Positions 379 through 64,000 of a stretch of DNA of 64,000 bases are shown here, piece after piece. The stretch spans positions 93,915 to 157,914 of the forward strand of contig JAYRGW010000001.1 in NCBI GenBank assembly GCA_041907665.1, in the 5' to 3' direction. The notes below the pieces were generated by a model that saw only the letters and a list, made by a program, of their open reading frames with translations, was not told the DNA's origin and made no database searches. Source of the DNA: Bacteroidaceae bacterium (GTDB lineage Bacteria > Bacteroidota > Bacteroidia > Bacteroidales > Bacteroidaceae). How positions within the stretch are numbered: the first letter of the stretch is position 1; each line of letters begins with the position of its first letter. The position numbers and the translations under genes are program-made.

Positions 379-2376
379 ATGACAATGAGGCTATCGAATA
401 GATTTCAATTAATATTATTGTCGGCTATATTTAGTTGTTCGGCCTACGCTATCGGAGTAGTACAATATGATAGCTATCCTATGCCAGCGGGGCAATGGGA
501 GGAATGTCGCTACTCCGTAAGGTATACTTCATTCTGTTTGTGGGCACCTACGGCGAACCGTGTTAGACTTAATATCTATTCATCCGGATCCGGTAATAAT
601 ATTTGGCGGACCCTCTTTATGCAATATTCCAAAGAGGATGGTTTGTGGAAGACGGCAGTCAATAAAGATTTGAATGGTAAGTTTTATACTTTTCAGATAC
701 AAATGAATGGTCGTTGGCTTGCTGAGACTCCCGGCTTATGGGCCAAAGCTGTTGGCATTAATGGCAGACGAGCATCTATTTTGGATCTTAGTACAACCAA
801 TCCTAGCAATTGGGCAAAAGATTATCGCCCAGCGTTGAAGAACTTCTCGGATATTACAATATATGAGATGCATTATCGAGATTTATCGGCAAGCAAAAGT
901 TCGGGAATCAAGCATCGCGGAAAGTTTTTGGCGTTGACAGAAGAGAATACCCATACTTCCGACGGATTGTCTACCGGTATTGATCATTTAAAGGAACTGG
1001 GTGTTACTCATGTTCACGTGTTGCCTTCTTTCGACTTTGCTTCTGTGGATGAAAGAGACAGTAATAGATACAATTGGGGCTACGATCCACAGAACTATAA
1101 TGTTCCCGATGGGGCATATTCGACGAACCCTTACGATCCTAAGGTCCGCATTATGGAATTCAAAAAGATGGTGATGGCTCTGCATCATGCGGGTATTCGT
1201 GTTGTCCTTGATGTTGTTTACAATCATACATCGAAAATGGATGGAAGTAATTTCCAACTTACCGTGCCCAGCTATTTTTATCGGACAGATGATAAAGGAG
1301 CCTTTTCGAATGCTTCGGGTTGTGGTAATGAAACAGCTTCGGAGCGACCCATGATGCGCCTTTACATGATTCAATCCGTGCTTTATTGGGCGAAAGAATA
1401 TCATATAGATGGTTTCCGTTTTGATTTGATGGGAGTGCATGACATCGAGACAATGAATGGAATAAGAAAAGCATTGGATGCTTACGATTCTTCTATCTTT
1501 GTTTATGGCGAAGGCTGGGCTGCCGGTGCTCCGGCATATTCGCCAGAGAAGTTGGCAATGAAAGCAAATATTGTTGAGATGCCTCGCATTGCAGCTTTTG
1601 GCGACGAAATGCGCGATGCTCTTCGAGGTCCTTTTAGTGATGATAATAAAGCGGCTTTCTTGGGAGCTGTGCCTGGTAGCGAAATGAGTATCAAATTTGG
1701 TATCGTAGGTGCTATCTGGCATCCACAGATTCTTTACGATAAGGTAAATTATAGTACTAAGCCTTGGGCCTTGCAACCTACTCAAGCTATTAGCTATGTA
1801 TCATGTCACGATGATATGTGCTTGGCCGATCGGTTAAAGGCTTCTATCCCTAATGCTACTGAATCTGAACTTCTTCGACTCGACAAACTTGCTCAAACAA
1901 TTGTCTTTACATCGCAAGGAGTGCCTTTTATGTTTAATGGAGAAGAAATGTTTCGAAGCAAAAAGGGAGTGCACAATAGTTTTGATAGCCCCGACAGTAT
2001 CAATGCCATTGATTGGTCACTAAAAAGTAAGTATAAAGATCTGTTTGAATATTATAAGGGGCTTATTGCCTTGCGTAAAGCACATCCTGCTTTTCGGATG
2101 GGCAGTGCCGATGTTGTTCGAGAGAAACTGAAGTTTCTTCCGGTGAACAAGGATAATGTCATTGCCTATACGCTGAATGATCATGCTGCAGGTGATCAGG
2201 CCAAGCAGATCGTTGTAGTGTTTAACTCGAATGCAGAAGACATCAGGCAAATGATAGATAATGGAAAATACAAGGTGCTTTGCCGAGATGGTGAAATCAA
2301 ACTAAGCGGATTGGGCACCATAGATGGTGGAGAGATAATTGTACCCAAACAGTCTGCTCTTATTTTGTCTAAATAA
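379..2376 (+). CDS. pulA: Type I pullulanase (GH13 family)
   Basis: 665 aa with a signal peptide. It carries the pullulanase signature YNWGYDPQNYNVPDGAYSTNP and the GH13 catalytic regions VVLDVVYNH, DGFRFDLMG, YGEGW and YVSCHDD. Confidence 0.9.
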   Translation: MTMRLSNRFQLILLSAIFSCSAYAIGVVQYDSYPMPAGQWEECRYSVRYTSFCLWAPTANRVRLNIYSSGSGNNIWRTLFMQYSKEDGLWKTAVNKDLNGKFYTFQIQMNGRWLAETPGLWAKAVGINGRRASILDLSTTNPSNWAKDYRPALKNFSDITIYEMHYRDLSASKSSGIKHRGKFLALTEENTHTSDGLSTGIDHLKELGVTHVHVLPSFDFASVDERDSNRYNWGYDPQNYNVPDGAYSTNPYDPKVRIMEFKKMVMALHHAGIRVVLDVVYNHTSKMDGSNFQLTVPSYFYRTDDKGAFSNASGCGNETASERPMMRLYMIQSVLYWAKEYHIDGFRFDLMGVHDIETMNGIRKALDAYDSSIFVYGEGWAAGAPAYSPEKLAMKANIVEMPRIAAFGDEMRDALRGPFSDDNKAAFLGAVPGSEMSIKFGIVGAIWHPQILYDKVNYSTKPWALQPTQAISYVSCHDDMCLADRLKASIPNATESELLRLDKLAQTIVFTSQGVPFMFNGEEMFRSKKGVHNSFDSPDSINAIDWSLKSKYKDLFEYYKGLIALRKAHPAFRMGSADVVREKLKFLPVNKDNVIAYTLNDHAAGDQAKQIVVVFNSNAEDIRQMIDNGKYKVLCRDGEIKLSGLGTIDGGEIIVPKQSALILSK

Positions 2377-2387
2377 AAAATACATAA

Positions 2388-5072
2388 ATGATGAAAGTCT
2401 ATTTTCAAATTAATTATTGTACGGCTTGGGGCGAAGAGGTTAGGATAAAACTGATTCAGTCCAATGGAATAGAAACCGTTTATCCTCTTGCTACTACCGA
2501 TGGTAAGGTGTGGAGCGGCAGTCTTTCTGTTTCTGGTGATATTCAGTATCAATATTGTATCTATGCCGATGGCAATTTTTCACGTTCCGAGTGGGATTTG
2601 AGTATACGTAGCCTTTGTGATGATGGAAACGTCAAAGTAGTTCATGTTGTCGATGCTTGGCGTGACAAACCCGAAATGTCTTTTTATTATAGTTCGGCCT
2701 TTACCGATTGTATCAGACGGAAAGAGAAATCCAATAAAAAGGCGTTGAAAAAGAAAATCTTCTCGAAAGCGATACGTCTCAATGTAACTGCTCCTCAGCT
2801 TACTCGTGATCAGGTCCTTTTTCTTTCAGGTAATCAAGACTTTCTAGGCAATTGGGATACGACAAAAGGCATCCCTATGGAAAGAGGTACAGGATTGCTC
2901 GAATGGCAGGCACTATTGGACGCATCAATATTGGCATTGCCATTGGAATACAAGTTTTATGCTGTCAATCGTACAACAGGAGAAGTAGAGTGGGAGACGG
3001 GAATGAACCATTCTATAGGCAACTTGAGTATCCAAGAAAATGAGATGTATGTATTCTCGGATATAACGGCCTATTTCTCTTTTCCTCGCTGGAAGGGCGC
3101 AGGCGTTGCTATTCCTGTCTTTTCGTTGCGTAGTAAGAAAAGTTTTGGTGTAGGAGACTTCGGCGATTTGAAAAAGATGATTGACTGGGCTGCGCTTACT
3201 CACCAAAGTGTTGTCCAAATTTTGCCTATCAATGACACTACCATTACTCATACATGGATCGATTCGTATCCTTATAAAAGTATTTCGATATATGCGCTTC
3301 ATCCTATGTATATGGATCTTAATGTTCTAGGCAAACTCAAAGATGCAAAGAAGAGTACAGCTTTCGCCAAGAAGCAGAAGGAATTAAACGCTCTGCCTCA
3401 GATAGATTACGAAGCGGTCAATAGTGCGAAGCTGGACTATATTAAGCAGAAGTTTGACGAAGAAGCAGAAGAGGTTCTTGCCTCCAGTAAGTTTAAAGCT
3501 TTCTTTGCTGACAATGAGTCGTGGTTGATGCCCTATGCCGCTTTTTCTTATCTGCGCGATAAGTTCGGTACGGCTGATTTCCACCTTTGGGGTGATTACC
3601 AAAACTTTGATCGGCAGAAGATTGCTCAACTTTGTTCGCCCGAGACTACGATATATAAGGAGATAGCATTTTGTTACTATATTCAATACAATCTTCATCT
3701 TCAGCTTTCCGACGTTAGTACTTATGCCCGTTGCCATCACGTTATTTTGAAGGGCGATATTCCGATAGGCATCAGTCGCAATAGTGTTGAAGCTTGGACC
3801 GAACCTCATTACTTCAACCTTGACGGACAAGCAGGTGCTCCACCCGACGATTTTTCGGTGAAGGGACAAAATTGGGGATCTCCTACCTACAATTGGGACG
3901 AAATGGCTAAAGATGGCTATGCTTGGTGGAAACATCGTTTCAAACAAATGGCACAGTACTTCGATGCTTATCGTATAGATCATATTTTGGGGTTTTTCCG
4001 TATTTGGGAAATTCCTATAGATGCCGTTCACGGATTATTGGGACAATTCTCACCGGCATTGCCTATGTCTGTTGGCGAAATACAACGTTACGGTTTGTGG
4101 TTCCGTTCCGATTTCTTCACTAAACCATTTATTAATGATCATGTTTTGGATAAAATCTTTGGTGAACATGCCCAAGAAGTCAGACTCAACTATTTGCAGC
4201 CCATTCACGACGGGCTCTATGAGATGTTGTCCCAGTATGATACTCAACGTAAAGTAGAAAAAGCTTTTGCGGGGAAGACAGACGAAAAGAGCAATTGGCT
4301 TCGAGAAGGCTTATATTCACTTATCAGTGATGTGCTTTTTATTCCAGATCGGAAGAATCCCAATATGTATCATCCTCGTATTGCTGTTCAATTCGATTTC
4401 GTCTACGAAGCGCTGAAATGGGGCGAAAAAGAGGCTTTCAATCGGTTGTATAACGATTATTATTACCGTAGACACAACGATTTCTGGTATCATGAGGCTA
4501 TGAAGAAACTACCTTGCCTTATCGGTGCCACTCGTATGCTGGTGTGTGGAGAAGATCTCGGAATGGTTCCCGGTTGTGTAGAAGCTGTAATGAAACAACT
4601 TCAGATATTGAGTCTGGAGTTGCAACGTATGCCCAAAAGCCAAAATGCCGAATTCGGTCATGTTACCGATTACCCTTATTTGTCGGTTTGCACTTTCTCC
4701 TCGCACGATACTTCTACTATTCGTGAGTGGTGGGAAGAAGATTATGGTAAGACCGCACGTTATTTTCAAAACGAATTGCATAGACAAGATGATATACCCC
4801 CATTTGCTCCCGCGTGGATTTGCAAATTAATAGTCGACCTGCAACTCAATAGCAACTCGATGCTTACGATTCTTTCATTTCAAGATTGGTTGTCTATTGA
4901 TGAGTCTGTTCGTCTTCCCGATGCTTCGGCCGAACGTATCAATGTTCCTGCTGATCCGCAGCACTATTGGCGTTATCGTATGCATCTTACTCTTGAAGAG
5001 TTAATGAATAGTGATGAATTGAATGAGGAAATAAGAAACCTGATAAGTAATAGCGGTAGAAATAAACAGTAG
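2388..5072 (+). CDS. malQ: 4-alpha-glucanotransferase (GH77 amylomaltase) with N-terminal starch-binding (CBM20-like) repeats
   Basis: 894 aa. The N-terminus has two CBM20-like segments (YCTAWGEEV, FLSGNQDFLGNWD). The core has GH77 motifs (GVAIPVFSLRS, SPYKSISIYALHPMY, DAYRIDHILGFFRIWEIP, CGEDLGMVP). It starts 11 bp after pulA. Confidence 0.9.
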   Translation: MMKVYFQINYCTAWGEEVRIKLIQSNGIETVYPLATTDGKVWSGSLSVSGDIQYQYCIYADGNFSRSEWDLSIRSLCDDGNVKVVHVVDAWRDKPEMSFYYSSAFTDCIRRKEKSNKKALKKKIFSKAIRLNVTAPQLTRDQVLFLSGNQDFLGNWDTTKGIPMERGTGLLEWQALLDASILALPLEYKFYAVNRTTGEVEWETGMNHSIGNLSIQENEMYVFSDITAYFSFPRWKGAGVAIPVFSLRSKKSFGVGDFGDLKKMIDWAALTHQSVVQILPINDTTITHTWIDSYPYKSISIYALHPMYMDLNVLGKLKDAKKSTAFAKKQKELNALPQIDYEAVNSAKLDYIKQKFDEEAEEVLASSKFKAFFADNESWLMPYAAFSYLRDKFGTADFHLWGDYQNFDRQKIAQLCSPETTIYKEIAFCYYIQYNLHLQLSDVSTYARCHHVILKGDIPIGISRNSVEAWTEPHYFNLDGQAGAPPDDFSVKGQNWGSPTYNWDEMAKDGYAWWKHRFKQMAQYFDAYRIDHILGFFRIWEIPIDAVHGLLGQFSPALPMSVGEIQRYGLWFRSDFFTKPFINDHVLDKIFGEHAQEVRLNYLQPIHDGLYEMLSQYDTQRKVEKAFAGKTDEKSNWLREGLYSLISDVLFIPDRKNPNMYHPRIAVQFDFVYEALKWGEKEAFNRLYNDYYYRRHNDFWYHEAMKKLPCLIGATRMLVCGEDLGMVPGCVEAVMKQLQILSLELQRMPKSQNAEFGHVTDYPYLSVCTFSSHDTSTIREWWEEDYGKTARYFQNELHRQDDIPPFAPAWICKLIVDLQLNSNSMLTILSFQDWLSIDESVRLPDASAERINVPADPQHYWRYRMHLTLEELMNSDELNEEIRNLISNSGRNKQ

Positions 5073-51341: not shown

Positions 51342-52574
51342 ATGGAATTGATTTATTTGATATTCGGATTATTGGTTGGTGGAGTCTTGGGCTATTTGTA
51401 TGCCTCTCGACAGGTTGCTGTGCTTAAATCGAATATGGCATTGCAATCAAGACATGCCGATGAACTGCGTACTGAAGATCTTCGAAACTTTCAGCAGCGT
51501 ATCAAAGAACTGGAAGCGGAGCAAGAAAAGAATAAGGCGGCTGAACAGAAATTGTTGACTGCGCAGTTTGAAAATCTGGCGAATCAGATCCTTAAATCCA
51601 ATTCTTCGGAATTCAAAGAAATGAGTGCCAATAGCCTGAAAGTGCTTCTCGATCCTCTAAACGATAAAATTAAAGATTTCAAGGACAGGGTCGAGAAGTG
51701 TTACGGTGACGAAGCGAAAGAGCGGTATTCCTTACAGCAAGAGATCAATAAGTTGATACAAGAGAATCAGAAAATAAGTGTCGATGCCAACAATCTGGCA
51801 AATGCTCTGAAGGGAGAGTCCAAGACACAAGGGGATTGGGGAGAAATGATTTTGGCAGATATCTTGCAAAAGTCGGGATTAAAAGAAGGAGAGCAATATT
51901 TCCCTCAGAATACGATTCGTGATGAAAACGGTGAACTTCTCAAATCGGATGCGGAGCAATTGATGCGTCCGGATATGGTAGTTGTGTATCCCGGTGAACG
52001 CAAAATTATTATAGACTCTAAAGTATCGCTCACCGCCTATGTGGATTATGTCAATACGGAGGACAAGAATACGGAGAAACAAAAGCTTAAAGAACATTTG
52101 GCTTCTATCAAAAAACATATCGATGAACTTAGTGCCAAAGATTACTCCAAGTACGATGTGAAAACGCCGGAGTTTGTTATGATGTTTATTCCCAACGAAT
52201 CGGCTTATTATGTCGCGGTCAAGTCCGATCCTAATTTATGGAATTATGCCTATCAGAAAAAAGTTGTGTTGATGAATCAAACGAATTTGATTACGGCTCT
52301 TCGTTTGGCGCTCGATCTGTGGCGCCGTGATGCACAAGAAAAGAATATTATGGAAATTGTAAAGGTGGGATCCGATTTGTATGATAAGTTTGTGCTTTTT
52401 ACCGAAAACTTTTCAAAAGTAGGAGACTCTCTCGATAAGGCCCGTCAATGCTACGATGATGCCTTGGGACAACTTTCTATCGGTAAAGGCAATCTTATTG
52501 GGCGAGCCGAACGGTTGCGCGGACTGGGAATATCGCCCAAGAAAGCTCTTCCTAAAACCGAAAGTGGGGATTAG
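51342..52574 (+). CDS. rmuC: DNA recombination protein RmuC
   Basis: 410 aa. It has an N-terminal TM helix, a long coiled coil and an RmuC nuclease-like C-domain (GDWGEMILADIL, PDMVVVYPGERKIIIDSK, FVMMFIPNESAY). Confidence 0.85.
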   Translation: MELIYLIFGLLVGGVLGYLYASRQVAVLKSNMALQSRHADELRTEDLRNFQQRIKELEAEQEKNKAAEQKLLTAQFENLANQILKSNSSEFKEMSANSLKVLLDPLNDKIKDFKDRVEKCYGDEAKERYSLQQEINKLIQENQKISVDANNLANALKGESKTQGDWGEMILADILQKSGLKEGEQYFPQNTIRDENGELLKSDAEQLMRPDMVVVYPGERKIIIDSKVSLTAYVDYVNTEDKNTEKQKLKEHLASIKKHIDELSAKDYSKYDVKTPEFVMMFIPNESAYYVAVKSDPNLWNYAYQKKVVLMNQTNLITALRLALDLWRRDAQEKNIMEIVKVGSDLYDKFVLFTENFSKVGDSLDKARQCYDDALGQLSIGKGNLIGRAERLRGLGISPKKALPKTESGD

Positions 52575-52599: not shown

Positions 52600-53436
52600 A
52601 TGAAAAAAGAAATTATAATTCAGTATTACAACAGTTTTGAAAAAGCTGCATTGGAATTGGAAGGTGTAGAATGTTGGAGTGCCAGAGATTTGCAACAACT
52701 GTTAGGTTATAGTAAATGGGAAAATTTTTCGAAAGTAATTGATAAAGCCAAGGAATCTTGCAAAAATGCCGAACAACTTGTAGCTGATCATTTTCCTGAC
52801 GTCAAGAAAACGATCGCAATGCCTAAAGGAGCTGAAAAACAAATAGATGACATTATGCTTACTCGTTATGCTTGCTATCTCATAGCCCAAAATGGCGACC
52901 CACGCAAAGTACAGATTGCGTTTGCACAGACCTATTTTGCCGTGCAAACTCGTAAAGCAGAGTTGATAGAAAAACGGTTGTTAGAAATTGAACGTATCAA
53001 GGCTCGTACGAAATTGCAGGAGACAGAGAAAAGACTTTCAGGGGTGTTATACGAGCATGGTATTGACAATAATGGCTTTGCATTGATCCGCTCAAAGGGC
53101 GATTTAGCTTTGTTTCATCTGAACACTTTGCAAATGAAACGAAAAATGGGAGTACCGGTCAGTCGTGCTGTTGCCGATTTCTTACCTACGATTAGTATAA
53201 AAGCAAAAGATTTTGCGGCCGAGATGACAAACGTTAATGTACAACAAAAAGATCTTTATGGTGAAGCCAACATTAGCAAAGAACATGTCGATAATAATAA
53301 AGCTGTGCGCCAAATGATGATAGATCGCGGCATTATACCGGAAGAACTCCCTGCGGCAGAAGACGTGAAAAAAGTGGAGAGGCGATTAGTCAGCGAAGAG
53401 AAGAAAGCTTTGACAAATAGGAATAAGAAAAAATAA
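52600..53436 (+). CDS. dinD: DNA damage-inducible protein D (DinD-like)
   Basis: 278 aa. The N-terminus ([42 protein letters not shown]) and the segment [17 protein letters not shown] are typical of DinD. Confidence 0.75.
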
Positions 53437-53466: not shown

Positions 53467-54126
53467 CACTTTTACTCTGATGTATGTTCTATCATAGAAA
53501 GAGCAGGATATGGCAAGCAGTTAATGAACAATCTGGTTAAGGAACTTACTGATAGTTATGGTAAAGGGTTTGACCGCATATCATTGTATAATTATTTGAA
53601 GTTTTATCGCTATTTTCCAAAGATTGTTGGCGCAGTGAGTCAACAATCAGAAAAAGTAGGCGTAGCGAGTCAATAATTCAAAGTTGGAGAAACACTGAGC
53701 ACCAAATTGCTGCCGTGGACACATTATAGGGAGTTAATCAGAGTCGATAATGCGCAGGCAAGAAAATGGTATGAGCAAGAAGCACTACATGAAATGTGGA
53801 GTACAAGAACTCTTCATCGAAATATTGCATCGCAGTATTACAGTCGCTTGTTGCAATCAGTACATAAAGAAAAGGTAACCGAGGAAATGCACAAGTTGAC
53901 GGCATCCATGCAACAAGACAGGTTAGAGTTTCTTAAAAATCCTGTAGTTGCAGAATTTCTTGGCTTACAGTCTAATTCCGATTTCACTGAATCAGAGTTA
54001 GAGGGTAGCATAATCAGTCATTTACAGAAATTCATCATGGAGATGGGCAAAGGATTTGCCTTTGTGGGCAGACAGCAACATATACGCACTGATATGGGAG
54101 ATTTTTATATTATTGGTTTAACGTGA
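53467..54126 (+). pseudogene. Degraded YhcG-like (DUF1016) PDDEXK nuclease gene
   Basis: A single frame reads ..IIERAGYGKQLMNNLVKELTDSYGKGFDRISLYNYLKFYRYFP..Q* (TAA at 53674-53676), then ..LLPWTHYRELIRVDNAQARKWYEQEA..GFAFVGRQQHIRTDMGDFYI. The N-terminal portion appears internally deleted. The frame ends where the PD-(D/E)xK core should continue. Confidence 0.65.
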
Positions 54127-54766
54127 CCTTTATACCCAGCTGAAGCGCAGCTGAGATCTTTTCGATGAATGCCTTTTTCATCGGGTTATTGCTATGAGTT
54201 ATTAGAAGCCAGCCATCGCCTAATTCTTTTTGACTTTTCCCGTATTTAGCATCTCTGCGATTGGAAATTACGGGCACTTTGCAGAATTTTAGATGATGTT
54301 CTTCTACTACCTTTCGAACCCTAGTCACACCAATTCTTTTCACTACCTTAACAAAAGTGTCTACTGCCTTTCTCTCGGCTATTATTGTTCCATCAGGAAA
54401 GAATACTGCCATATCCCTTGCCGGTCCACGTTTAATCTTGTCATCGTTATGATTTTCATGCTTACCATGTTCCACTTCCGGATCAACAACTATTTCTTTT
54501 GCATCTGGCATATCAGCGGTAAAATTGCGCTTACGACTTAAGTGTACACTCAGTGGTTGCCCCGGCATATAGTCTACTACCAGTACCAATTCACGTTGTA
54601 CCGGTTGGAGTGCAGGTTCAATACTTTTTGTCAATATGGGGAGAATCTCTTTTTTGATAATTTCTTCCTCTAGTTCGTTTGCTTTCTTTTCAAGGTTCTC
54701 ATCAACAGGAAGACCTTCTTTGCGAAGGGTTTCCATAGCTTTATATAGGTTGTCTAATCTGCTCAT
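54110..54766 (-). CDS. Hypothetical protein (218 aa): N-terminal coiled coil, acidic/His linker, basic C-terminal domain
   Basis: It is a clean ORF with no motif I can assign. Its first 19 codons have a vestigial duplicate at 56091-56147. Confidence 0.6.
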   Translation of the reverse strand: MSRLDNLYKAMETLRKEGLPVDENLEKKANELEEEIIKKEILPILTKSIEPALQPVQRELVLVVDYMPGQPLSVHLSRKRNFTADMPDAKEIVVDPEVEHGKHENHNDDKIKRGPARDMAVFFPDGTIIAERKAVDTFVKVVKRIGVTRVRKVVEEHHLKFCKVPVISNRRDAKYGKSQKELGDGWLLITHSNNPMKKAFIEKISAALQLGIKVTLNQ

Positions 54767-54788
54767 AATTTAATGTTCTAATATTGAT

Positions 54789-54914
54789 ATGTACATGAAA
54801 TAGCGGTTTTATGTACACGTCCTATGTGATGTGTACGCGAAAGTCCAGCTTTATGTACATGAGTAATCTGCCATGTACATGAATATTTGGTTTTATGTAT
54901 GAATTGTACCACTT
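54789..54914. repeat. Degenerate 42-bp tandem repeat x3, each unit carrying two ATGTACAYG boxes
   Basis: Boxes start at 54789, 54811, 54831, 54853, 54873 and 54895, with spacing alternating 22/20 bp. ATGTACAT is an 8-bp palindrome. The third unit runs into the 3' end of the Fic CDS. Confidence 0.7.
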
Positions 54915-56050
54915 ACCGATTCTATCATAGGAACAGTATCTTTAGACAATTCAGCATGATTCAAAAATAGATTTATCAGCTCTGTATTTATATAGTAATT
55001 CACTTGGCCGATTTTTTCTTTATGTAGCAAACCTGCATCTACAATCATATTCAGGTACTTGGAGGCAGTTCTTCGTTCTACCATCATATCCCTTACCATG
55101 AATTCTATCTTTGTATATGGATGAAAGAACAAATTATTCAATAGTTCATGTTTATATTGCTTATCGAATAGGGGGCGTAAGACACTTTTATAGTAATTCA
55201 TCAAACCAGATATACCTTTTACTAAGCTGATAGTTTCAGTAGCTGTTTCTTCTATACCTTTTAAGATAAATAGAATCCATTCAATCCATTCTTTAGCATT
55301 GTCTGTGCCTTTATCACGAATGGTTTGAATTAATCTATAATACTCACCTTTATTATGGGTGATATATCGGCTAAGATATAATATGGGTAAATCCAATAAA
55401 CCGGTTGTTACCAAATACAGAACGTTCACAATACGTCCAGTACGTCCGTTTCCATCATAGAATGGATGTATGCTTTCAAATTGATGATGGATGATTGCCA
55501 TCTTTATCAAGGGATCCAATTCAGACATTGCTTCATCATTGATGAAAGTTTCAAGATTTTGCATATACTCAATAATTTGTGCCCCATCTTGGGGAGGAGT
55601 ATATACGACTTTTCCATCACTGCGTTCAAGTTTGGTACCTGGCGCAGTTCTGAATCCTGCCCTGTTGTGTTCCAACTCAGTTTGAATCTGTTTGATGATA
55701 TTATTTGTAAGCAGCTTTTTCTTTCTAACTTGTTGGAATCCTTTTTCAATCGCTTCACGATATGCAAGCACTTCTTTTGTGGAAGCATTAATAATACTTT
55801 GCTTCACATTTAAATCAGCTTTATAGAGGTCATCCTGGGTGGTAACGATATTCTCAACTTCAGAGCTGTCCTTTGCTTCTTGTAAGGTAAGCGTACTGAT
55901 AAGTATGCGCTCATTGGGTATTGTTAGGGCAACACCCTTCAATTCAGCCAACTTTCGGTGCGAACGAGTTAGTTGTTTTAAGACCTCCTTTGTTTCCAAA
56001 TCATAAGGAAGAGGGAGAGTTGGAATATTGTATTGCTTATTCATAATCAT
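54893..56050 (-). CDS. Fic-family protein (class II, N-terminal inhibitory helix) with C-terminal winged-helix domain
   Basis: 385 aa. It has the Fic active-site motif HPFYDGNGRTGR and an upstream inhibitory motif of the [ST]xxxE[GN] type (SSEVEN). Confidence 0.85.
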   Translation of the reverse strand: MIMNKQYNIPTLPLPYDLETKEVLKQLTRSHRKLAELKGVALTIPNERILISTLTLQEAKDSSEVENIVTTQDDLYKADLNVKQSIINASTKEVLAYREAIEKGFQQVRKKKLLTNNIIKQIQTELEHNRAGFRTAPGTKLERSDGKVVYTPPQDGAQIIEYMQNLETFINDEAMSELDPLIKMAIIHHQFESIHPFYDGNGRTGRIVNVLYLVTTGLLDLPILYLSRYITHNKGEYYRLIQTIRDKGTDNAKEWIEWILFILKGIEETATETISLVKGISGLMNYYKSVLRPLFDKQYKHELLNNLFFHPYTKIEFMVRDMMVERRTASKYLNMIVDAGLLHKEKIGQVNYYINTELINLFLNHAELSKDTVPMIESVSGTIHT

Positions 56051-56090
56051 TATTTTACTCTGTTGATTATTACTTGATTTTATTACGCGA

Positions 56091-56147
56091 AAGACTTCCT
56101 CTACGAAGGGTTTCCATGGCTTTATATATATAGTCTAATCTACTTAC
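56091..56147 (-). pseudogene. Vestigial 5' fragment homologous to the start of the 218-aa gene
   Basis: The minus strand reads VSRLDYIYKAMETLRRGSL, against MSRLDNLYKAMETLRKEGL at 54711-54767. About 45 of 56 nt are identical by hand alignment. The start codon is lost and a stop follows soon after. Confidence 0.6.
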
Positions 56148-57096
56148 CTTTTTTATTTTTTAATTCTTCTATACCCTGTTTTATCAATTTACTTTTATCA
56201 TCACTAGAGCAACAGTATACTTGAATATAGCCACATAAAAAAAAGCATATAAAACTAATGAGAAGAGCTAAAGGTCTTAACTGTTCTACATCTAAAAGAA
56301 ATGGCTTTGAACGATTAGAAGCATGAGATAATAAGCCTCTATACTCTATTAAGATATAGACAATTCCATCAAAGTCTAGTTCCTTTTGCTTTTTCTTACA
56401 TTCTTGTAATATCCATGAATAATTCGAGCCTTTTTTATCTTCATTTTCAAGCATCTGTAACGCACTTAGAACGCATAATTCTAGCAATTCAGAATTCTTG
56501 AAGTTTTGGGTCACCTTATCCCGATGAAACTGTCCATCGGCAAACATAAACTCTAACATCATGAAATAGTTTATGAATGCAAAATAGTAGTCATTATCGT
56601 TGAAAAAATTACGTGCTTGTCTATAATAGCTGAATGGTATATGAGCCTCTGGTAACATTTTTCTAAATATTACTAAATTTGATAAGTTAGAATTACTTAC
56701 ATATTCTGTTGAAGTTTTTGGGATTCTATTTCGTTTTAATGAAGTCATAGGAATGCTTCCTTTTTCTTCTTCTGTTTCATAAATCCATTTAACTTCCAAC
56801 TCGTCAATATGTATTTTTTTTACTTCAAAATTAAATGCTCCCATTGCCTCTATATAGTACAACCATTGTTCCATATCTTTATAAGCTTCAGGCTTTGTTG
56901 CTTCTATATTTGGAGTATTATTTTTAACATAAATTTTTGGTGCGACATCCTTATAATCAATAATAGGTTTAGTGATACTTATATATTTTTTACCATTATC
57001 TTCAAATATCCTAAATTCATAAGGATAAAGTTTTGCCGAAACGGAATCATTTAGCAAAAAGTTACCTTCTATTTCTGCTATTATTTGTATTTTCAT
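56140..57096 (-). CDS. Hypothetical 318-aa protein: beta-rich N-domain plus helical C-domain with an Rx4H (HEPN-like) motif
   Basis: Its ATG overlaps the methyltransferase TGA (ATGA at 57093-57096). The C-terminal half contains YRGLLSH followed by a long hydrophobic helix (LALLISFICFFLCGYIQ). No Walker or other catalytic motif is recognisable. The gene is very AT-rich. Confidence 0.65.
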   Translation of the reverse strand: MKIQIIAEIEGNFLLNDSVSAKLYPYEFRIFEDNGKKYISITKPIIDYKDVAPKIYVKNNTPNIEATKPEAYKDMEQWLYYIEAMGAFNFEVKKIHIDELEVKWIYETEEEKGSIPMTSLKRNRIPKTSTEYVSNSNLSNLVIFRKMLPEAHIPFSYYRQARNFFNDNDYYFAFINYFMMLEFMFADGQFHRDKVTQNFKNSELLELCVLSALQMLENEDKKGSNYSWILQECKKKQKELDFDGIVYILIEYRGLLSHASNRSKPFLLDVEQLRPLALLISFICFFLCGYIQVYCCSSDDKSKLIKQGIEELKNKKGK

Positions 57097-60000
57097 AAAT
57101 TTTCCTCCATATATTCTTTTTCCGTAATTGATGTTTCTGGGTCTACAATTTTTACCTCATCGTAAGTGAGGCCATAAAGATGGTATACTAAACGGTCAAT
57201 TTCTTGCTCTTCCGCTGTTGTATCAGTTTCAGGATTGTTTTGATATGCTTTTATAATCGTATCAATCAACAAATATATTCGGCTCTTATCATTAGGTATT
57301 ACTATTGGTAACTTTTTTGTATTGGCAATTAATACTTTTTGAAATAGTACTTTTTGAACATCCAAATATTTATTTTTATGATAGAAACTCATCAATCTAG
57401 AATTAAGTATTGCCAAAATAATCATTAATTGATTAGAATCGTTTGTCCTTGATAATAAAGAAAAACCAATTTGAGTAAAATAATGGGGTTTATTAGAATA
57501 GCCAGCAATAATTCTTAGCCCATCACCAACAATTTGGCGCACAATTATTTTCTCATTTGTAAAAAACCTTCTTTCTCTAGGAGCACCTAACCATTCACCA
57601 TAATGCAAATACTCCTCAACTTCATTACTAACAAAATATGGATGTATATTTTTACCAGAGATAAGAGGCACATAGCTGTTATCAATCTTTGCAGTAGAAT
57701 GGAAAATGCGATTTTTTATTGTATTTGTATCATGACCTTTATATTTGTCATAAGGCGTAATACCTAATGATGTGATTACGTAATCTTCTAATGGGTGACC
57801 TCTCTTTTTTATCTTTGACAATAAACTAAGAGTTTCTTTATTTGCAAAAATATTAAATCGTAAATCTTTATCTTTTTCCCAATTTTGTTTATCAAATGAT
57901 TCCAACTGAATTTTTTGAAGAGATACTTTTTCATCATTGCTAAAACAATACGCATAAACATCTTCAGTAATTAAATGTTTACTCAATAATAATATTATTG
58001 TTTCTACACTTGCTGATTGAAACACATGATCTGGTAGTTTTATTATTTGAATAACGCTATCAATTATTAGCTTCCTAATTTTAAAATATGATTCATTCAT
58101 AAGAATGGAGTTAGGATTAATATAACATAAGACCCCTTGGTTAGAACATAAATTGTAACCTTTTTCTATAAAGATAGAATATAAATTTATTCGATTCTCA
58201 GTTGTCTTAAATATATTAAAATACATTTTGACATCTTCACTTGATAATCCTTTTATATCAATATATGGTGGATTTCCAATTACAATATCAAACCCGTCAT
58301 TAACTCCAAACATCCATTCTGGGTCGAAAAATGGCGAAAAAGCATTTTGATCAAACATATCCCAAGATGCAAGTTGCTGTGCTTCTTCGTTACCTACAGC
58401 TCCACACTCTTTAAGCATTTCTGCAATTTCCAAACGTAAGTCATTTACTATTTGGCGATATTTACGTTTGGTTTTATACTTAGAAGCAAAGATTTTATGT
58501 TTGGCTACTTTAAGTTCGTTTTCCTTTGTTCTTATCGCATCTGAATCAAATAATGAAGCATCCTTTTTGTCTAATCCGATAAGCGTATTAGCAGCAACAA
58601 ACTTGGCTTCTAGGTTTGGTAATGGACGAATTCCGAAGTTGTCGGCTGGACTGGTATTAGTGTTTTGGTCAACAACCAATGAAATGAAGAAACGGAGTTT
58701 GCTTATTTGGATGGCAATAGGCTGAATATCTACACCATAAATACAGTTCTCTATCAGATATAGTTTGCGGGCATAGTCGGGGCGATTAACGTTCTCATCA
58801 AAGCTGCGTTCAATATCTGCGATCATTTCACTACGCTCTTCTTTTGACGCATTGCGATAAGCGTCTGACGTCTCATCTATAGCTTGATCCATCATCATAT
58901 CCTTCCACTGCACATTGTCAGGATCTATGCGTCCCTGTATATGTACCATTTGTTGGAGTATTCCCATAGGGAATGCACCCGAACCACATGCGGGGTCAAG
59001 AATTTTGCAATCGTAAAGTGATTGCATAATGCTAAGCCGTTGTTCATCCGTGAAATTCACTGGTTCATCAGAGTATTGCAACAGTTGCCGAAATTGTGGT
59101 TCCAAGTCTTCACCAACTGTTCGTTTTAGATGAGCAATCAAACTTTCATCTACCATATATTGAACAATTTCTCTTGGTGTGTAGAAAGAACCGGTCTGCT
59201 TACGGGCTGTAGTTTGTGTTTCCGGATTAAACGAAGCAAGTAAGTTCTCAAATACTTTTCCTAGTAGTTCCGGATCGAGTGAAACTTCTTTGTCAAAAGG
59301 TGTATTCTCTTCTACAGTAAAGTTATATCGTTTCAGGATGTCAATAATACCACGCGCAGAAACTTTCTTTTTCTTCCTATCTCCATACCATATCGAAAGG
59401 TCAATGTTCTTACCAGCTTCATCGCCAAAGAATAAAAAATCGGGAACGACAAGTGACTTGCGGATAGCTTCACGGTCACTGAATCCATCATAATACATAC
59501 CTTTGTCTTTTTCATCCAGGCAATCGAATAAACCACCATTCAAAAATGGCACAGTACGATTGGCTATATCAACAAACAACTGCGGGTTACTGAAGTAATA
59601 TTCATAGCGCATCAACTTATTATTGTCATAGTCACCACGGCCATTACGAAAATGCCGTTCAGAAATTTCCGTGCTGTCTTCTGCCGTAATAGGACTGTTT
59701 AGCATCGCAAAGAAAAGATTCTGTAGAATGGCTTTGTAGTATTTACTTTCAACTGATTTTTCTTTGAATAGGCCTTCTGTCTTATGGGGGTCAAATCCTT
59801 CGATTAAATTATCTGCTATATATTTCTCGTCAAAGAATTCATCGGGTATAAGATGGCGTTGCTTTAGGAACCACACAAAGATGAGACGAGTGATAAGGCG
59901 AATGGCACTTTCGTTATTGAATTTATCATCATCTGTATTGTCATTGATATCATTTGGAAATCGGATAATCTGAATCGCCCAGGCATACCAATCACTAAGC

Positions 60001-60521
60001 TCGCTATAAAATTCTTTAGTAAGCACTTCCACAGAGAAGCGACTGTGCAGGTCTTCATCATTAACTACACGCCCCTTTTCATTGAGATATTTATTGGGGG
60101 TGTAATAGGCAATGCCCTTACCAAGAAAATAGCTATACCTACGTGGATTGCTATAATTGCGTGATATGCGGGACGCTCCTTCAGCCACATCGAGCGTTAT
60201 CTCGATGAAAGAAAAACGGTAATTGTCATTACTGTCTTCGGGTACAAAGACAACTAAAGCGCGGTCTTCCGTTTCATCGGCCAACATACGAAAAGCCTCC
60301 TTTGACAAGGCTACCCTTGCATCATGAGTTGATGTATGCTTCATTTCATATATCACCAAGTCTAATGAAGTAGAAGAACCCAATTTCACTGCTTCTGTCG
60401 TATATTTCATTTGGGTGGAGAGAGTTACCTCTTCCGTGACGGGAACAAAATCCTCCGGCAAAAAACTGTTTTGTAGGAAACTAACGAACTCCTGACGGTT
60501 ATATGCTTTATTAAATTCCAT
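57093..60521 (-). CDS. Large gamma-class N6-adenine DNA methyltransferase with C-terminal target-recognition domain (Eco57I/PglX-like)
   Basis: The motif order is FYTPREIV, then DPACGSGAF (SAM binding), then GNPPYI (catalytic NPPY), followed by about 400 aa of TRD-like sequence. The track ORF starts at a GTG (60548). The first ATG (60521, MEFNKAYN) lies 7 nt after the helicase stop. Confidence 0.85.
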   Translation of the reverse strand: MEFNKAYNRQEFVSFLQNSFLPEDFVPVTEEVTLSTQMKYTTEAVKLGSSTSLDLVIYEMKHTSTHDARVALSKEAFRMLADETEDRALVVFVPEDSNDNYRFSFIEITLDVAEGASRISRNYSNPRRYSYFLGKGIAYYTPNKYLNEKGRVVNDEDLHSRFSVEVLTKEFYSELSDWYAWAIQIIRFPNDINDNTDDDKFNNESAIRLITRLIFVWFLKQRHLIPDEFFDEKYIADNLIEGFDPHKTEGLFKEKSVESKYYKAILQNLFFAMLNSPITAEDSTEISERHFRNGRGDYDNNKLMRYEYYFSNPQLFVDIANRTVPFLNGGLFDCLDEKDKGMYYDGFSDREAIRKSLVVPDFLFFGDEAGKNIDLSIWYGDRKKKKVSARGIIDILKRYNFTVEENTPFDKEVSLDPELLGKVFENLLASFNPETQTTARKQTGSFYTPREIVQYMVDESLIAHLKRTVGEDLEPQFRQLLQYSDEPVNFTDEQRLSIMQSLYDCKILDPACGSGAFPMGILQQMVHIQGRIDPDNVQWKDMMMDQAIDETSDAYRNASKEERSEMIADIERSFDENVNRPDYARKLYLIENCIYGVDIQPIAIQISKLRFFISLVVDQNTNTSPADNFGIRPLPNLEAKFVAANTLIGLDKKDASLFDSDAIRTKENELKVAKHKIFASKYKTKRKYRQIVNDLRLEIAEMLKECGAVGNEEAQQLASWDMFDQNAFSPFFDPEWMFGVNDGFDIVIGNPPYIDIKGLSSEDVKMYFNIFKTTENRINLYSIFIEKGYNLCSNQGVLCYINPNSILMNESYFKIRKLIIDSVIQIIKLPDHVFQSASVETIILLLSKHLITEDVYAYCFSNDEKVSLQKIQLESFDKQNWEKDKDLRFNIFANKETLSLLSKIKKRGHPLEDYVITSLGITPYDKYKGHDTNTIKNRIFHSTAKIDNSYVPLISGKNIHPYFVSNEVEEYLHYGEWLGAPRERRFFTNEKIIVRQIVGDGLRIIAGYSNKPHYFTQIGFSLLSRTNDSNQLMIILAILNSRLMSFYHKNKYLDVQKVLFQKVLIANTKKLPIVIPNDKSRIYLLIDTIIKAYQNNPETDTTAEEQEIDRLVYHLYGLTYDEVKIVDPETSITEKEYMEENL

Positions 60522-60528
60522 ATTATTT

Positions 60529-63500
60529 CTATTTTTGTAGTTCTTCACTTAAAATTAAGGTCTCTTCGCTATCATCCACTCTATTTTGAGTGAGGATGAT
60601 GCGAGCCAAATATTCCGTTTTTATTTTTTTCGGAAGCTTGGTTGCGTCTTTTAATGCCAATTGATTGATAAAACGTATTTCAAAACCTGATAAGGCGTCT
60701 GCTTTGACAACCGACATTAAATCAAACAAATAGTCGGCTGGCAATAGTTCGTTTTTTTGAAGAACCTTTATTTTTGATACAGCATTCAGAATATCTTTCT
60801 CATTGCGGTCTTTTACATCACTGCTGAATAGGGCTGATTTGACTTTTTGGTAAACGTCATCAAAGTCTTTACTAAAATCTACAGGCTCTTCTTCTCGTTT
60901 AGCAGCGAATAGAGATAAAGCTGTTTCGGCAGAAATCATAACAGGAACAATGGATTTGCTTCCTATTTTAAAGACGAAATCATTTCCTTTCTTTCCAAAC
61001 AGAAGCACACCTTGTTGAGGTTTTTTAATATCACGAGCAGTGCGGGCACGATGTGGCATCAGCAATGCCTTTTCGTAAGCTTCCGTTCCTTTCAGTTCGT
61101 TCAAAAGTTTCCGATAAGGTGTATCCCAAGAAGATTCTTCATTGCGTGTAAATTCTTTGCGGTAACGTTCCTTGAAGTATGCTTGGACTTCTTCATCTTT
61201 GGTCAATGCTCTGGTATCTTCTCCCATGATGGCATGAATCATAGCCATTTTTAGTGTGGAGATTTCTTTGGTGCGGGTTTCTGCTTCACCAACGTCCGTT
61301 GGGAAGTAATTGTAAATATAGAGTTCTTCGAATACTTTTTTGTTAATACGGTTGATTCGTCCAATGCGTTGAATGACACGAGTTGGATTATAAGGAATGT
61401 CATAATTGAATATAGCACCGGCACGATGGAGATTGTAACCTTCAGAAATCGCATCGGTTGCTATTAATATGTGATAATCATTTTGCTGCAACGAAGATTT
61501 CAGACCTGCATCAAAATTGGCTCTTATACGGTCTTTGTTGATTTGTGTAGCATCTGCCGATGTATATTTCATAACGGGAAGACCGGCTTTCTGAAGTGCT
61601 TTTCCTAAATAATTAACAGTATCGGCATATTCTGAAAATACAATCAATTTTCGATTGGGGTCACTCTTCATCATTTTCCGAATTATCTTGATGAATGAGT
61701 CAAGTTTCGGGTCAAAATGAATGGTATTATCCGTCCCAAACCATTGTTCGCGCAAGTTATTAAGAAGTTGAAGGTCTGATTTCACATTTTCAATGAAGTC
61801 ATCCTTCACATATTTCATGTCGATCTCGAAGAAGCCTTTAGTCTCGTATTTATCAAAAATGTCTTCGATTTCTTCTATTCCGTCTTCTGTGGATTCATAG
61901 AAATCGTTTACATCAGGAAGATTACCTTTCTTGTATACAGGTATTTTATGGCGTGTCTCCACCCATTTTAAGATATGTTCCGAAGATTGAATCATATAGC
62001 CCAATGAGGATTGGAATGCGGCGACAGAACTTTCAAATCGACCAACTAACAAGTGGCGCATGAAACTTGCCACATTAGCTTGTCGTCCAATCAACAAATT
62101 GAAATTGATTCCGGTTTTTTCTTCCAGTTCCTTGGCCAGTTTCTCTTTCATCTCCTCGTAAACGTATAGAACAGGAGAATAACGAGCAGCCTTGAATCTA
62201 TAAATATCGGTATTGGTGTTTTCGGATTTGCTAATACGGTCTAATGTCGTTAAATATAAATCTTTTAATTCACTTAGGTCGTAAGTAAGCTCTGCAGGAT
62301 CATTCGGGATGACAAGCTTAATACCCTGCTGCTTTAGATCGGCTGCATATTCATCAATCTCTTGCAAATCCAGGCGTGAGCGACGCACCACCAATGGGAT
62401 GATAATGGAACGAATATTCTTTGAAATATTTTTCACCTCGGCTTTAACTTCTTCCTCCGAGCTTTTCCCTTTTCGTTGAGCTTCACGCAAATCACGATAT
62501 TTGTCTATAAGATTTTTGAACGCTGCTCCTAGATTTTCCACAGTCTTAAGTGTAGAGCGTGAAGGTATTTGGAAGAGCTTTATTAATGAGTATATATCAG
62601 CTGGCTGATTATTGAATGGTGTTGCGGTTAACAATAATACTTTATTGCCCGAACAAAGATTATGAAGCAGAGCGTAATCTTGCGTATATTCATTGCGGAA
62701 GCGATGGGCTTCATCAATGATAATCAGAAATTGTTCATTCTCTTTTACCAGTTCCTCATAATGGAGTAACGCATTTTCAATTTTACCGGCACTAAACACG
62801 GAAGCGGTGAAGCCAAATTCATCTCGATAATCTTCCCATTGTTTATATAAGTGAGGTGGACAGACAACTATTGTTCTTAATTTTAGATTACGTGCAATGG
62901 TTGAAGCAATAATACTTTTTCCAAGACCTACCACATCGGCCACAATAGCGCCATTATGATTTTCCAGTGCATTTAATGCCATTTGAACTGCGTCTGTCTG
63001 ATATCTTAAATTGGAATATTTACCATCAGTAATATCATAGGGGGTAAGCAGGTTCTCTTTAGTAGGGATGGCAAAGAATTCATGAAGCACACGGATATAT
63101 ATTAAGAATGGGGAATAAATGTGATCGTACCAAATGCGAGTCATTACTTTATTATTCCATTCATCTACATTGTCTTTGTTTGCAACTACAACAGAGTCTT
63201 TCCAAAGTTCTTCAAATATTTTTTGACCTTCCTCATAATCTGTTTTATCGTTAAAACGAGCATTTAGTTCCAATCGTCCGGTTAAACCTTGATAAGAAAG
63301 GTTGCTTGAACCTGTAATTACCACTCCTGGCAATTCGCCATTTTCGTTCATTTGGTCATTATAAGCGAACAGATACATTTTGGAGTGGCATGGCTCAAGA
63401 GTCTTTCTTATTTCCAGTGACCCATCTACAATTTTTCCATAGAACATCTTGAATTGTTCCAATTTCTCGACCGTATCCAAGAAGTCTGTATCGTTGAATA

Positions 63501-63780
63501 TTTTTACAAACTGTTTGTAATATTCTTCTTTAATGTTACTTCGTGAGGGTAAGGTTTGTCTGAAGTTTTCTACTTCACAGATATGTTTAGTTATTTGCAA
63601 ATCTACATCAAGTCCGACGAGAATACGAATATTTTTATCTTTTAGGTTATTGGATAATTCAATATAACCGGAATAGTAGAAATATCCCACAAGTATATCA
63701 ACAGTATCTGTCTTTGGAAGAATGCCATTAATAATATCTGAAAGAAATTTTTCTTTATTTGTAATGAAATTGCTACTCAT
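60529..63780 (-). CDS. PLD-family nuclease domain fused to an SNF2-type superfamily-2 helicase
   Basis: 1083 aa. The N-terminus has an HKD motif (CHSKMYLF...VITGSSNLS). Helicase motifs are motif I (VVGLGKS), motif II (IIIDEAHRFRN), motif III (LLLTATPFNN) and motif VI (QRIGRINR). Confidence 0.85.
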   Translation of the reverse strand: MSSNFITNKEKFLSDIINGILPKTDTVDILVGYFYYSGYIELSNNLKDKNIRILVGLDVDLQITKHICEVENFRQTLPSRSNIKEEYYKQFVKIFNDTDFLDTVEKLEQFKMFYGKIVDGSLEIRKTLEPCHSKMYLFAYNDQMNENGELPGVVITGSSNLSYQGLTGRLELNARFNDKTDYEEGQKIFEELWKDSVVVANKDNVDEWNNKVMTRIWYDHIYSPFLIYIRVLHEFFAIPTKENLLTPYDITDGKYSNLRYQTDAVQMALNALENHNGAIVADVVGLGKSIIASTIARNLKLRTIVVCPPHLYKQWEDYRDEFGFTASVFSAGKIENALLHYEELVKENEQFLIIIDEAHRFRNEYTQDYALLHNLCSGNKVLLLTATPFNNQPADIYSLIKLFQIPSRSTLKTVENLGAAFKNLIDKYRDLREAQRKGKSSEEEVKAEVKNISKNIRSIIIPLVVRRSRLDLQEIDEYAADLKQQGIKLVIPNDPAELTYDLSELKDLYLTTLDRISKSENTNTDIYRFKAARYSPVLYVYEEMKEKLAKELEEKTGINFNLLIGRQANVASFMRHLLVGRFESSVAAFQSSLGYMIQSSEHILKWVETRHKIPVYKKGNLPDVNDFYESTEDGIEEIEDIFDKYETKGFFEIDMKYVKDDFIENVKSDLQLLNNLREQWFGTDNTIHFDPKLDSFIKIIRKMMKSDPNRKLIVFSEYADTVNYLGKALQKAGLPVMKYTSADATQINKDRIRANFDAGLKSSLQQNDYHILIATDAISEGYNLHRAGAIFNYDIPYNPTRVIQRIGRINRINKKVFEELYIYNYFPTDVGEAETRTKEISTLKMAMIHAIMGEDTRALTKDEEVQAYFKERYRKEFTRNEESSWDTPYRKLLNELKGTEAYEKALLMPHRARTARDIKKPQQGVLLFGKKGNDFVFKIGSKSIVPVMISAETALSLFAAKREEEPVDFSKDFDDVYQKVKSALFSSDVKDRNEKDILNAVSKIKVLQKNELLPADYLFDLMSVVKADALSGFEIRFINQLALKDATKLPKKIKTEYLARIILTQNRVDDSEETLILSEELQK

Positions 63781-64000
63781 ACCTTTTAATTTATTTAAGC
63801 GACAGCTGTATTTTGTTTTTCATCCGCTTACGGACTGTAATCTCAGTTCTACTTAATTGCTCTGCCAACCATTTTATTGGTTTGTCGTTTTCAGCCTAAG
63901 CCATCTTAATCCTATTTTTAGCTATTGTTCGCATATCGTTTGATAATAACTTATCTATTTACGATACAAAATTAGCAGAATATGTTTATAAATAAGTGTA

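Follow-up and report, generated by a model that had tools for sequence, protein, structure and literature searches.

This report concerns a gene for a protein of 318 amino acids (aa), here called the target, in a stretch of 64,000 nucleotides (nt) from a Bacteroidaceae bacterium (contig JAYRGW010000001.1, positions 93,915 to 157,914). The whole stretch is called the window, and coordinates are window positions unless another locus is named. Our results favor, at a probability of roughly 0.5, the hypothesis that the target is a HEPN-type effector of the abortive-infection type, which would form the second line of a restriction-modification (RM)-like system made of a PLD-SNF2 helicase and an Eco57I-type methylase, and which would be a portable module. 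Three genes on one strand are at issue.

56140 to 57096, minus strand: the target gene, a called open reading frame (ORF) of 318 aa; two-domain MauJ-like protein, probably a (putative) HEPN-type ribonuclease (RNase)
57093 to 60548, minus strand: the methylase, 1151 aa, Eco57I-type N6-adenine methylase, type IIG-like, whose specificity domain is TaqI_C
60529 to 63780, minus strand: the helicase, 1083 aa, an N-terminal PLD (HKD) nuclease domain plus SNF2; predicted restriction component

A preliminary description of this DNA had placed a third gene behind the helicase/methylase pair, and both the ORF and its overlap with the methylase proved to be real. The target starts at an ATG that overlaps the TGA of the methylase ORF in an ATGA junction, and the reverse complement near 57093-57096 reads TTTATGAAA. 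The methylase matches Eco57I (1.4e-31), N6_Mtase and TaqI_C in Pfam and REase_MTase_IIG in PADLOC (7e-61); the helicase matches PLDc_2, SNF2-rel_dom and Helicase_C in Pfam and 'HKD+Snf2' in PADLOC (3e-40), and is DrmD-like. Ratios of nonsynonymous to synonymous substitution rates (dN/dS) of 0.23 and 0.17 against two homologues indicate that the target is under purifying selection.

The case for a HEPN-type enzyme begins with the conservation of two residues. The target has 118 close relatives, mostly from Bacteroidales of gut and rumen metagenomes, and when 1.84 billion cluster representatives were searched with a profile, 667 distant relatives (clusters at 50% identity) were returned. Nearly all of the latter are 300-320 aa long, so that the two-domain architecture is constant. 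The family extends over Bacteroidota, Firmicutes, Proteobacteria-type MauJ proteins and Asgard archaea, and is at present annotated merely as 'hypothetical' or 'MauJ'. In an alignment of 76 sequences reaching down to ~17% identity, R253 and H258 are the sole invariant columns. Wider counts were made in 323 relatives, with denominators that vary by column: 308/309 have R253, 309/309 have H258 and 301/309 have G254; position 182 is Glu in 305/311 and Asp in 5/311; E83 is kept in 309/312 and N176 in 270/313; and position 159 is Arg or Lys in 310/314. The preliminary description had read YRGLLSH (residues 252-258) as a HEPN Rx4-6H signature and had named a lack of conservation of its R and H among homologues as grounds for abandoning that reading; both residues are retained almost without exception. 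An Rx4-6H motif alone is not beyond chance, because one arises in 31% of residue shuffles of the target protein, and a second one in the target (R145-H152) is not conserved. Unlike the motif alone, the near-absolute conservation of R253 and H258 across the 323 relatives is beyond chance, and it decides the matter.

The predicted structure places R253 and H258 where a HEPN domain would have its motif. A full-length AlphaFold2 (AF2) model built from a 40-sequence alignment reached a mean predicted local distance difference test score (pLDDT) of 85, and a model of the C-terminal domain only reached a pLDDT of 93 with a predicted template-modelling score of 0.89. The following features were read from these models.

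56722 to 57096, minus strand: N-terminal beta-rich domain, residues 1-125, from AF2 secondary structure; proposed to serve in sensing or regulation
56146 to 56694, minus strand: C-terminal all-helical domain, residues 135-317, from AF2; predicted HEPN-like bundle
56551 to 56553, minus strand: E182 in helix 2, motif INYFMMLE; the acidic residue expected near a HEPN active site
56323 to 56340, minus strand: R253-G-L-L-S-H258, an Rx4H at the C-terminal end of helix 3; putative catalytic motif
56209 to 56289, minus strand: helix 270-296 with the hydrophobic stretch LALLISFICFFLCGYIQVY; core helix 4

The outline given in the preliminary description, with a beta-rich N-terminal part of about 130 aa, a helical C-terminal half and a motif just ahead of a long hydrophobic helix, is borne out by the full model, in which strands are spread across residues 2-121 with one helix at 73-89, followed by helices only from 135 to 317. 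The N-terminal helix 73-89 bears the motif WLxYIEAMG, including E83. In the domain-only model the proposed core helices are H1 (149-166), H2 (170-185, carrying N176 and E182), H3 (242-257) and H4 (270-296), with a three-helix insert at 192-235 between H2 and H3, a short helix at 261-268 that separates H3 from H4, and a final helix at 301-317. According to PMC3710099, a HEPN domain has its motif where helix 3 ends or the loop to helix 4 starts; helix 2 carries an acidic or polar residue near that motif, and inserts follow helix 2 in front of helix 3. As modelled, the target fits this placement: the conserved RGLLSH ends H3, E182 lies in H2, the insert separates H2 from H3, and H4 is long. In order and length the predicted helices would also suit the four-helix up-down bundle of two alpha-hairpins that characterises HEPN proteins.

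Sequence profiles locate the family next to MauJ. Taken alone, the target has no significant match in Pfam, NCBIfam, PADLOC, PHROG or PDB sequences: its best Pfam match is MauJ (PF17419) at E=0.43, with 11.9 bits against a gathering cut-off of 28 bits, NCBIfam and PADLOC scans at E values up to 1 returned zero families, and PDB sequence searches with the protein and two family profiles gave chance matches only, such as apolipoprotein E and syntaxin. The preliminary description, too, had matched the protein to no family. Among 150 diverse relatives scanned against Pfam, with MauJ matches counted at E<=0.1, 94 matched MauJ at a best E of 1e-9. These matches begin at about residue 155 and end at 260-298, and so extend from the first core helix to past the Rx4H (residues 156-283 in the relative P0119), and PF17419 is the precomputed Pfam annotation of several relatives. 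With so low a score for the target but E values down to 1e-9 among its relatives, the MauJ relation holds at the level of the family and not for this sequence alone. Judged by these profile matches, the C-terminal domain of the target is equivalent to the Pfam MauJ domain; the Pfam model has 116 positions and covers the helical domain alone, and the N-terminal beta domain of the target lies outside it. The founding MauJ belongs to the methylamine-utilisation (mau) cluster, and we know of no function assigned to MauJ. A search for the true mau-cluster MauJ on plasmids gave hypothetical proteins in rhizobia only, and literature searches for MauJ with HEPN or defence and for PF17419 found nothing relevant; within the searchable literature, no report seems to link the MauJ family to HEPN or defence. 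When 76 relatives were scanned, PADLOC and NCBIfam detected no known defence family.

In the same sample of 150 relatives, HEPN families are the recurrent secondary Pfam matches. HEPN_Apea was matched by 10 relatives (best E 6e-4), HEPN_RiboL-PSP by 2 and HEPN_AbiV by one (P0127, residues 217-288, spanning the Rx4H of that protein), each below its gathering score. DUF1980_C was matched by 2 relatives at a best E of 0.042, which is consistent with noise, and the remaining Pfam families shown are single, unrelated matches at the same E-value level. HEPN families account for very few of the 24,736 Pfam models, so that their recurrence is very unlikely to be noise. Ten relatives with RN or RD motifs were rescanned; no HEPN_Apea match was recovered among them, only MauJ and one AbiV match. 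The profile search that the preliminary description had proposed as a check thus gave weak but recurrent HEPN matches in the relatives and none for the target.

The preliminary description had also likened the arrangement of the protein to ApeA. Full-length Ec1ApeA and Ec2ApeA were recovered from E. coli genomes and an ApeA profile was built. The best hhalign comparison of the family with this profile placed R253/H258 onto R521/H526 of Ec1ApeA at P=0.04 and a probability of ~1%, comparisons with single ApeA sequences or a narrow ApeA profile gave P=0.04-0.4 only, and a hidden Markov model of the Ec1ApeA clade failed to find the MauJ-like family. R521A is the published active-site mutant of Ec1ApeA, and ApeA is an anticodon nuclease activated by deoxydinucleotides. 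Cryo-electron microscopy shows that ApeA, at ~580-600 aa, is mostly alpha-helical, consists of an N-terminal, a Mid and a split HEPN domain, and assembles as decamers or dodecamers (bioRxiv 10.64898/2026.01.26.701840). In ApeA, a stand-alone defence protein, a regulatory N-terminus precedes a C-terminal HEPN domain with inserts, and the resemblance of the target goes no further than this general plan; HEPN_Apea is the commonest secondary Pfam match of the target family. The two proteins differ in size and class, the target having 318 aa and a 125-aa beta domain where the N-terminal part of ApeA is helical. We therefore rejected an ApeA-like architecture, and this part of the preliminary description found no support.

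The link to helicase/methylase pairs was assessed in 68 loci with a family member (denoted by L numbers), whose neighbor genes were clustered; the close subfamily comprises members at >=59% identity and the distant relatives those at 32-46% identity. In the close subfamily, an Eco57I-type methylase lies directly upstream of the gene, preceded by PLD-SNF2, in the window, L007-9/L037, L012 and L038; loci from Marseilla, from Bacteroides and from metagenomes show this order. In several loci the gene keeps its 4-nt start/stop overlap with the methylase. Elsewhere in this subfamily the methylase stands one or two small genes upstream (L011, L013, L028, L029, L040, L042), or the partner is a different SNF2 helicase with AlbA_2/HATPase_c_4 and a 1381-aa Eco57I methylase (L032, L033, L062). 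Among the distant relatives, one homologue follows a 1077-aa helicase beside Eco57I and C5 methylases (L026), and others have partners of other kinds. A homologue of ~41% identity lies 20 nt downstream of a Hachiman-like pair, HamA (PF08878) and a 971-aa DEAD-box helicase, in L049 (737-6748) and also in L050 and L053, and these neighbors indicate that the module is not specific to methylase systems. Solitary copies occur among housekeeping and metabolic genes (L001-3, L022), and searches of viral contigs and of phage and plasmid records gave no homologue of the target subfamily.

Two side observations concern the distant homologues. A 1216-aa protein without a Pfam match (1247 aa by our own ORF caller) lies 14 nt upstream of a homologue of 39-41% identity in L004-6 (6337-9987 in L004) and L045; it may belong to an undescribed system. 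Near ribosomal-protein genes, a 100-aa ORF (L024 7702-8004; L025 442-744) overlaps the start of a distant homologue by 4 nt, and could be a small antitoxin-like partner.

A further gene tends to accompany the target on its downstream side.

54110 to 54766, minus strand: p218, 218 aa, recurrent downstream partner of the target

This gene is present in 15 of the 68 loci, often overlapping the stop of the target. It has no Pfam or PDB match and is unassignable to any family; it could encode a DNA reader, or else a protein that regulates the target or acts as its antitoxin. Between L012 and the window, the helicases share 34% and the methylases 37% identity, against 65% for the target and 87% for p218, and these values tie the target-p218 module to two deeply diverged RM-like pairs. 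Across the target and the 3' end of the methylase, which encodes the specificity domain, the guanine-plus-cytosine (GC) fraction is 0.29 (window 56000 to 58000) as opposed to 0.38-0.43 in the flanks, and this dip suggests a recently exchanged or mobile cassette.

The nearest genome with the same locus provides a natural deletion. L010 (Bacteroides metagenome-assembled genome CAXXSS010000001, 9604-12759, corresponding to window 54326-64000) aligns to window 57212-54326 at 91% and to 64000-63916 at 96% identity; the deletion has removed the helicase together with almost all of the methylase, leaving ~200 base pairs in place of ~6.7 kilobases (kb). The target is intact (dN/dS 0.23), and p218 is truncated to 153 aa. 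The gene is thus maintained without the RM-like pair, and loss of the pair cannot leave behind a product whose activity kills the cell. Of the attachment to the helicase/methylase pair that had been described earlier, what stands is a linkage that recurs across divergent systems; it is not exclusive, given the Hachiman-like, other and solitary contexts and the loss of the pair in L010. Coupling to the methylase is likely, though not obligatory.

For HEPN genes found at RM, BREX and BREX-related loci, previous reports have proposed the part of back-up suicidal effectors (PMC3710099; PMC12839542), and the mechanism that we propose follows this pattern. The target is likely co-transcribed and translationally coupled with the methylase, as the ATGA overlap and the recurrent synteny indicate. 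By analogy with HEPN enzymes, in which metal-independent RNase activity comes from a composite active site of two subunits, its C-terminal domain would be an RNase working as a dimer, which the beta-rich N-terminal domain with E83 would probably keep off until an infection-related signal arrives. Once a phage engages or disables the DNA-targeting system, the RNase would cut cellular or phage RNA and growth would stop. This output would back up the PLD-SNF2/methylase system much as PrrC does EcoprrI and as the HEPN genes of RM, BREX and BREX-related loci do. The module is portable, in that members of this family sit behind other helicase-based defence systems and can also stand alone. The target shares the conserved Rx4H with the HEPN RNases of RM and BREX loci, and its predicted helices would add the long helix after the motif, the acidic residue in the preceding hairpin and the helical insert; its operon, too, contains genes for a methylase and a helicase-nuclease. 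It differs from them in having no significant sequence or structure match to defined HEPN families, and in its extra N-terminal beta domain with an invariant Glu. HEPN domains are known to fuse to nucleases, helicases or ATPases, not methylases (PMC3710099); the link between target and methylase is a translational overlap only, with no fusion.

The hypothesis should be interpreted with some caution, as several observations weigh against it. No HEPN profile match reaches the Pfam gathering score, and for the target there is no such match at all. Foldseek searches of PDB with the full and C-terminal models, which the preliminary description had proposed as a further check, gave no significant match: HEPN entries appeared at E>1 only, namely HepT 7ae9 (ranks 4 and 8) and PaREP1 2q00 (ranks 15 and 48), at E 1.8-5 and template-modelling (TM) scores of 0.23-0.49. 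Nothing significant was found when the C-terminal model was searched against a viral structure library. The residue after the HEPN Arg is usually polar, and in the target motif it is Gly (G254). Furthermore, L010 keeps the target without helicase and methylase, and some homologues are solitary among metabolic genes; it follows that the target does not need this RM-like partner. Because Foldseek gave no significant match, we call the HEPN fold of the modelled C-terminal domain probable and not demonstrated. The HEPN-type assignment of the preliminary description is partly supported: a conserved motif, a fitting placement and the recurrence of HEPN families as secondary Pfam matches speak for it, whereas the Foldseek results and the profile thresholds do not. 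Flavin monooxygenases, which Foldseek listed for the N-terminal part at E 0.07-0.5 and TM ~0.17, were judged noise and rejected. The lack of a significant structural neighbor for either domain and the sub-threshold HEPN signals would also fit a protein that is no nuclease at all: a regulatory, sensor or adaptor subunit of helicase-based systems, such as a reader of nucleic acid or of a ligand, whose R, H and E bind a ligand, with a fold that is new or HEPN-like by convergence. The fourth invariant acidic residue, E83, which lies outside any HEPN core, and the place of the founding MauJ in a methylamine-utilisation cluster with no known role point the same way. We nevertheless consider this unlikely, given that the R/H pair is kept in >99% of 309 sequences whereas non-catalytic HEPN domains such as MtlR lose it, and given that an acidic residue in helix 2 together with an Rx4H ending helix 3 is a specific HEPN catalytic arrangement. 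The preliminary description had offered another alternative, in which the hydrophobic stretch is a membrane anchor. In the target, LALLISFICFFLCGYIQVY has a Kyte-Doolittle mean of 2.15 over 19 residues, above the usual transmembrane threshold of 1.6 over 19 residues, and this favors an anchor through LALLISFICFFLCGYIQVYCC. The hydrophobicity is, however, not conserved: in 137 relatives the median of the maximum mean is 1.44, only 46 reach 1.6 anywhere in the domain, and 131 have at least two charged residues in the helix-4 segment. Moreover, the stretch is a confidently modelled helix within the C-terminal helical bundle, the amphipathic helix 301-317 follows it, and the protein has no N-terminal signal. 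We rejected a membrane anchor, which in our judgment is extremely improbable.

The main rival to an effector tied to the RM-like pair grants the protein the same HEPN-like toxin or defence activity but has it act alone, as ApeA and RloC do, with the methylase and helicase taking no part in its control; the neighbors would then be explained by defence islands and by insertion at operon ends. Much in the genomic context could be read this way. Solitary copies exist, the upstream partners are highly varied and include proteins of unassigned function, and the slot between methylase and target holds other genes in some loci (a TIR gene in L040, small ORFs in L011, L013 and L028). Purifying selection persists after deletion of the pair in L010, and the low GC content of 29%, against 38-43% in the flanks, suggests a mobile cassette. 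An autonomous toxin would, on the other hand, hardly account for the 4-nt methylase overlap kept in several loci, for a same-strand, terminal position behind helicase systems and not at random island sites, or for the pairing of target and p218 with two PLD-SNF2/methylase systems that share only ~35% identity, and we regard it as somewhat unlikely. A more far-reaching proposal, and a doubtful one, starts from the lack of a significant PDB neighbor for either domain: the MauJ-like family would then be no classical HEPN RNase but a two-domain module of new structure, for output or sensing, and a common downstream effector of diverse helicase-based systems. It would be shared, with equal doubt, by the PLD-SNF2/methylase, SNF2/methylase and Hachiman-like systems and by those with the ~1200-aa protein. 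By analogy with the deoxydinucleotides that activate ApeA, such a module might be switched on by what a helicase-nuclease produces when it acts on DNA. If this proposal were true, the long-orphan mauJ would receive its first functional hypothesis.

Several neighboring genes deserve mention, the nearest of which lies between target and p218.

54893 to 56050, minus strand: SoFic-type Fic protein (PADLOC SoFic 2e-112), separated from the target by 89 nt on its downstream side

Its NCBIfam match (2.7e-107) is below the cut-off of that model. The Fic gene occupies this position only in the window and L010; elsewhere p218 comes directly after the target. Fic/Doc toxins beside loci with RM and HEPN genes have been noted (PMC3710099).

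Beyond p218, a 139-aa ORF (53707 to 54126, plus strand) is a fragment of a 345-362-aa protein (neighbor cluster c5) that adjoins p218 or the target in L034, L035, L042 and L046; its sequence may resemble the N-terminus of a DUF1016/YhcG PD-(D/E)XK nuclease. Two further proteins adjoin the island on the plus strand, one of 278 aa (52600 to 53436) that is presumably akin to the DNA-damage-inducible DinD, and one of 410 aa (51342 to 52574) in which we presume a resemblance to RmuC. In other loci the gene cluster has additional members. A 272-aa TIR protein (TIR_2, E 5e-12) lies between the Eco57I methylase and the homologue in L040 (2627-3445) and also in L015 and L039, and the one in L040 is a putative second effector in the same slot. 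A Schlafen-like protein of 480-635 aa with AlbA_2, HATPase_c_4 and wHTH domains accompanies the cluster in 11 loci (L007-9, at 1668-3227, L011, L012, L015, L018, L032 and L038-40); the gene is absent from the 64-kb window. Proteins of this build are widespread in BREX and BR systems, where they are described as auxiliary RNases (PMC12839542).

Pairs of PLD-SNF2 and Cj0031/Eco57I-like methylase are noted in passing in PMC9881135, and the two upstream genes of the window have exactly these domain sets. PMC12839542 names HKD-helicases as effectors of 'Type-2 BR' systems, which according to the same text also carry an N6-methyltransferase, a DUF499 ATPase and DUF3780. The window has the HKD-SNF2 helicase and the methyltransferase; DUF499 and DUF3780 were not seen in the window, which ends 220 nt upstream of the helicase, or in related loci, including those with 10 kb of upstream sequence; related loci often carry the AlbA_2/HATPase_c_4/wHTH gene instead. 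The available portions of both sources make no mention of a MauJ-like third gene. HEPN domains linked to RM systems, for their part, have been documented since 2013, in at least 16 clades (PMC3710099). Thus both the PLD-SNF2/methylase pairs and RM-linked HEPN domains were already known, and what seems new is the link of MauJ to HEPN and defence. With HEPN back-up effectors at RM-like systems known since 2013, the advance is incremental and not conceptual.

In conclusion, the presented data suggest that back-up "suicide" effectors of a known kind probably include the target and its family as a new clade. Defence-system finders in current use overlook the family, as neither PADLOC nor NCBIfam covers it. 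If our hypothesis is true, the HEPN effector repertoire would grow by 667 or more clusters (at 50% identity), and the poorly studied PLD-SNF2/Eco57I-methylase systems, which are common in gut Bacteroidales, would gain an RNA-targeting abortive-infection layer, as would some Hachiman-like loci.

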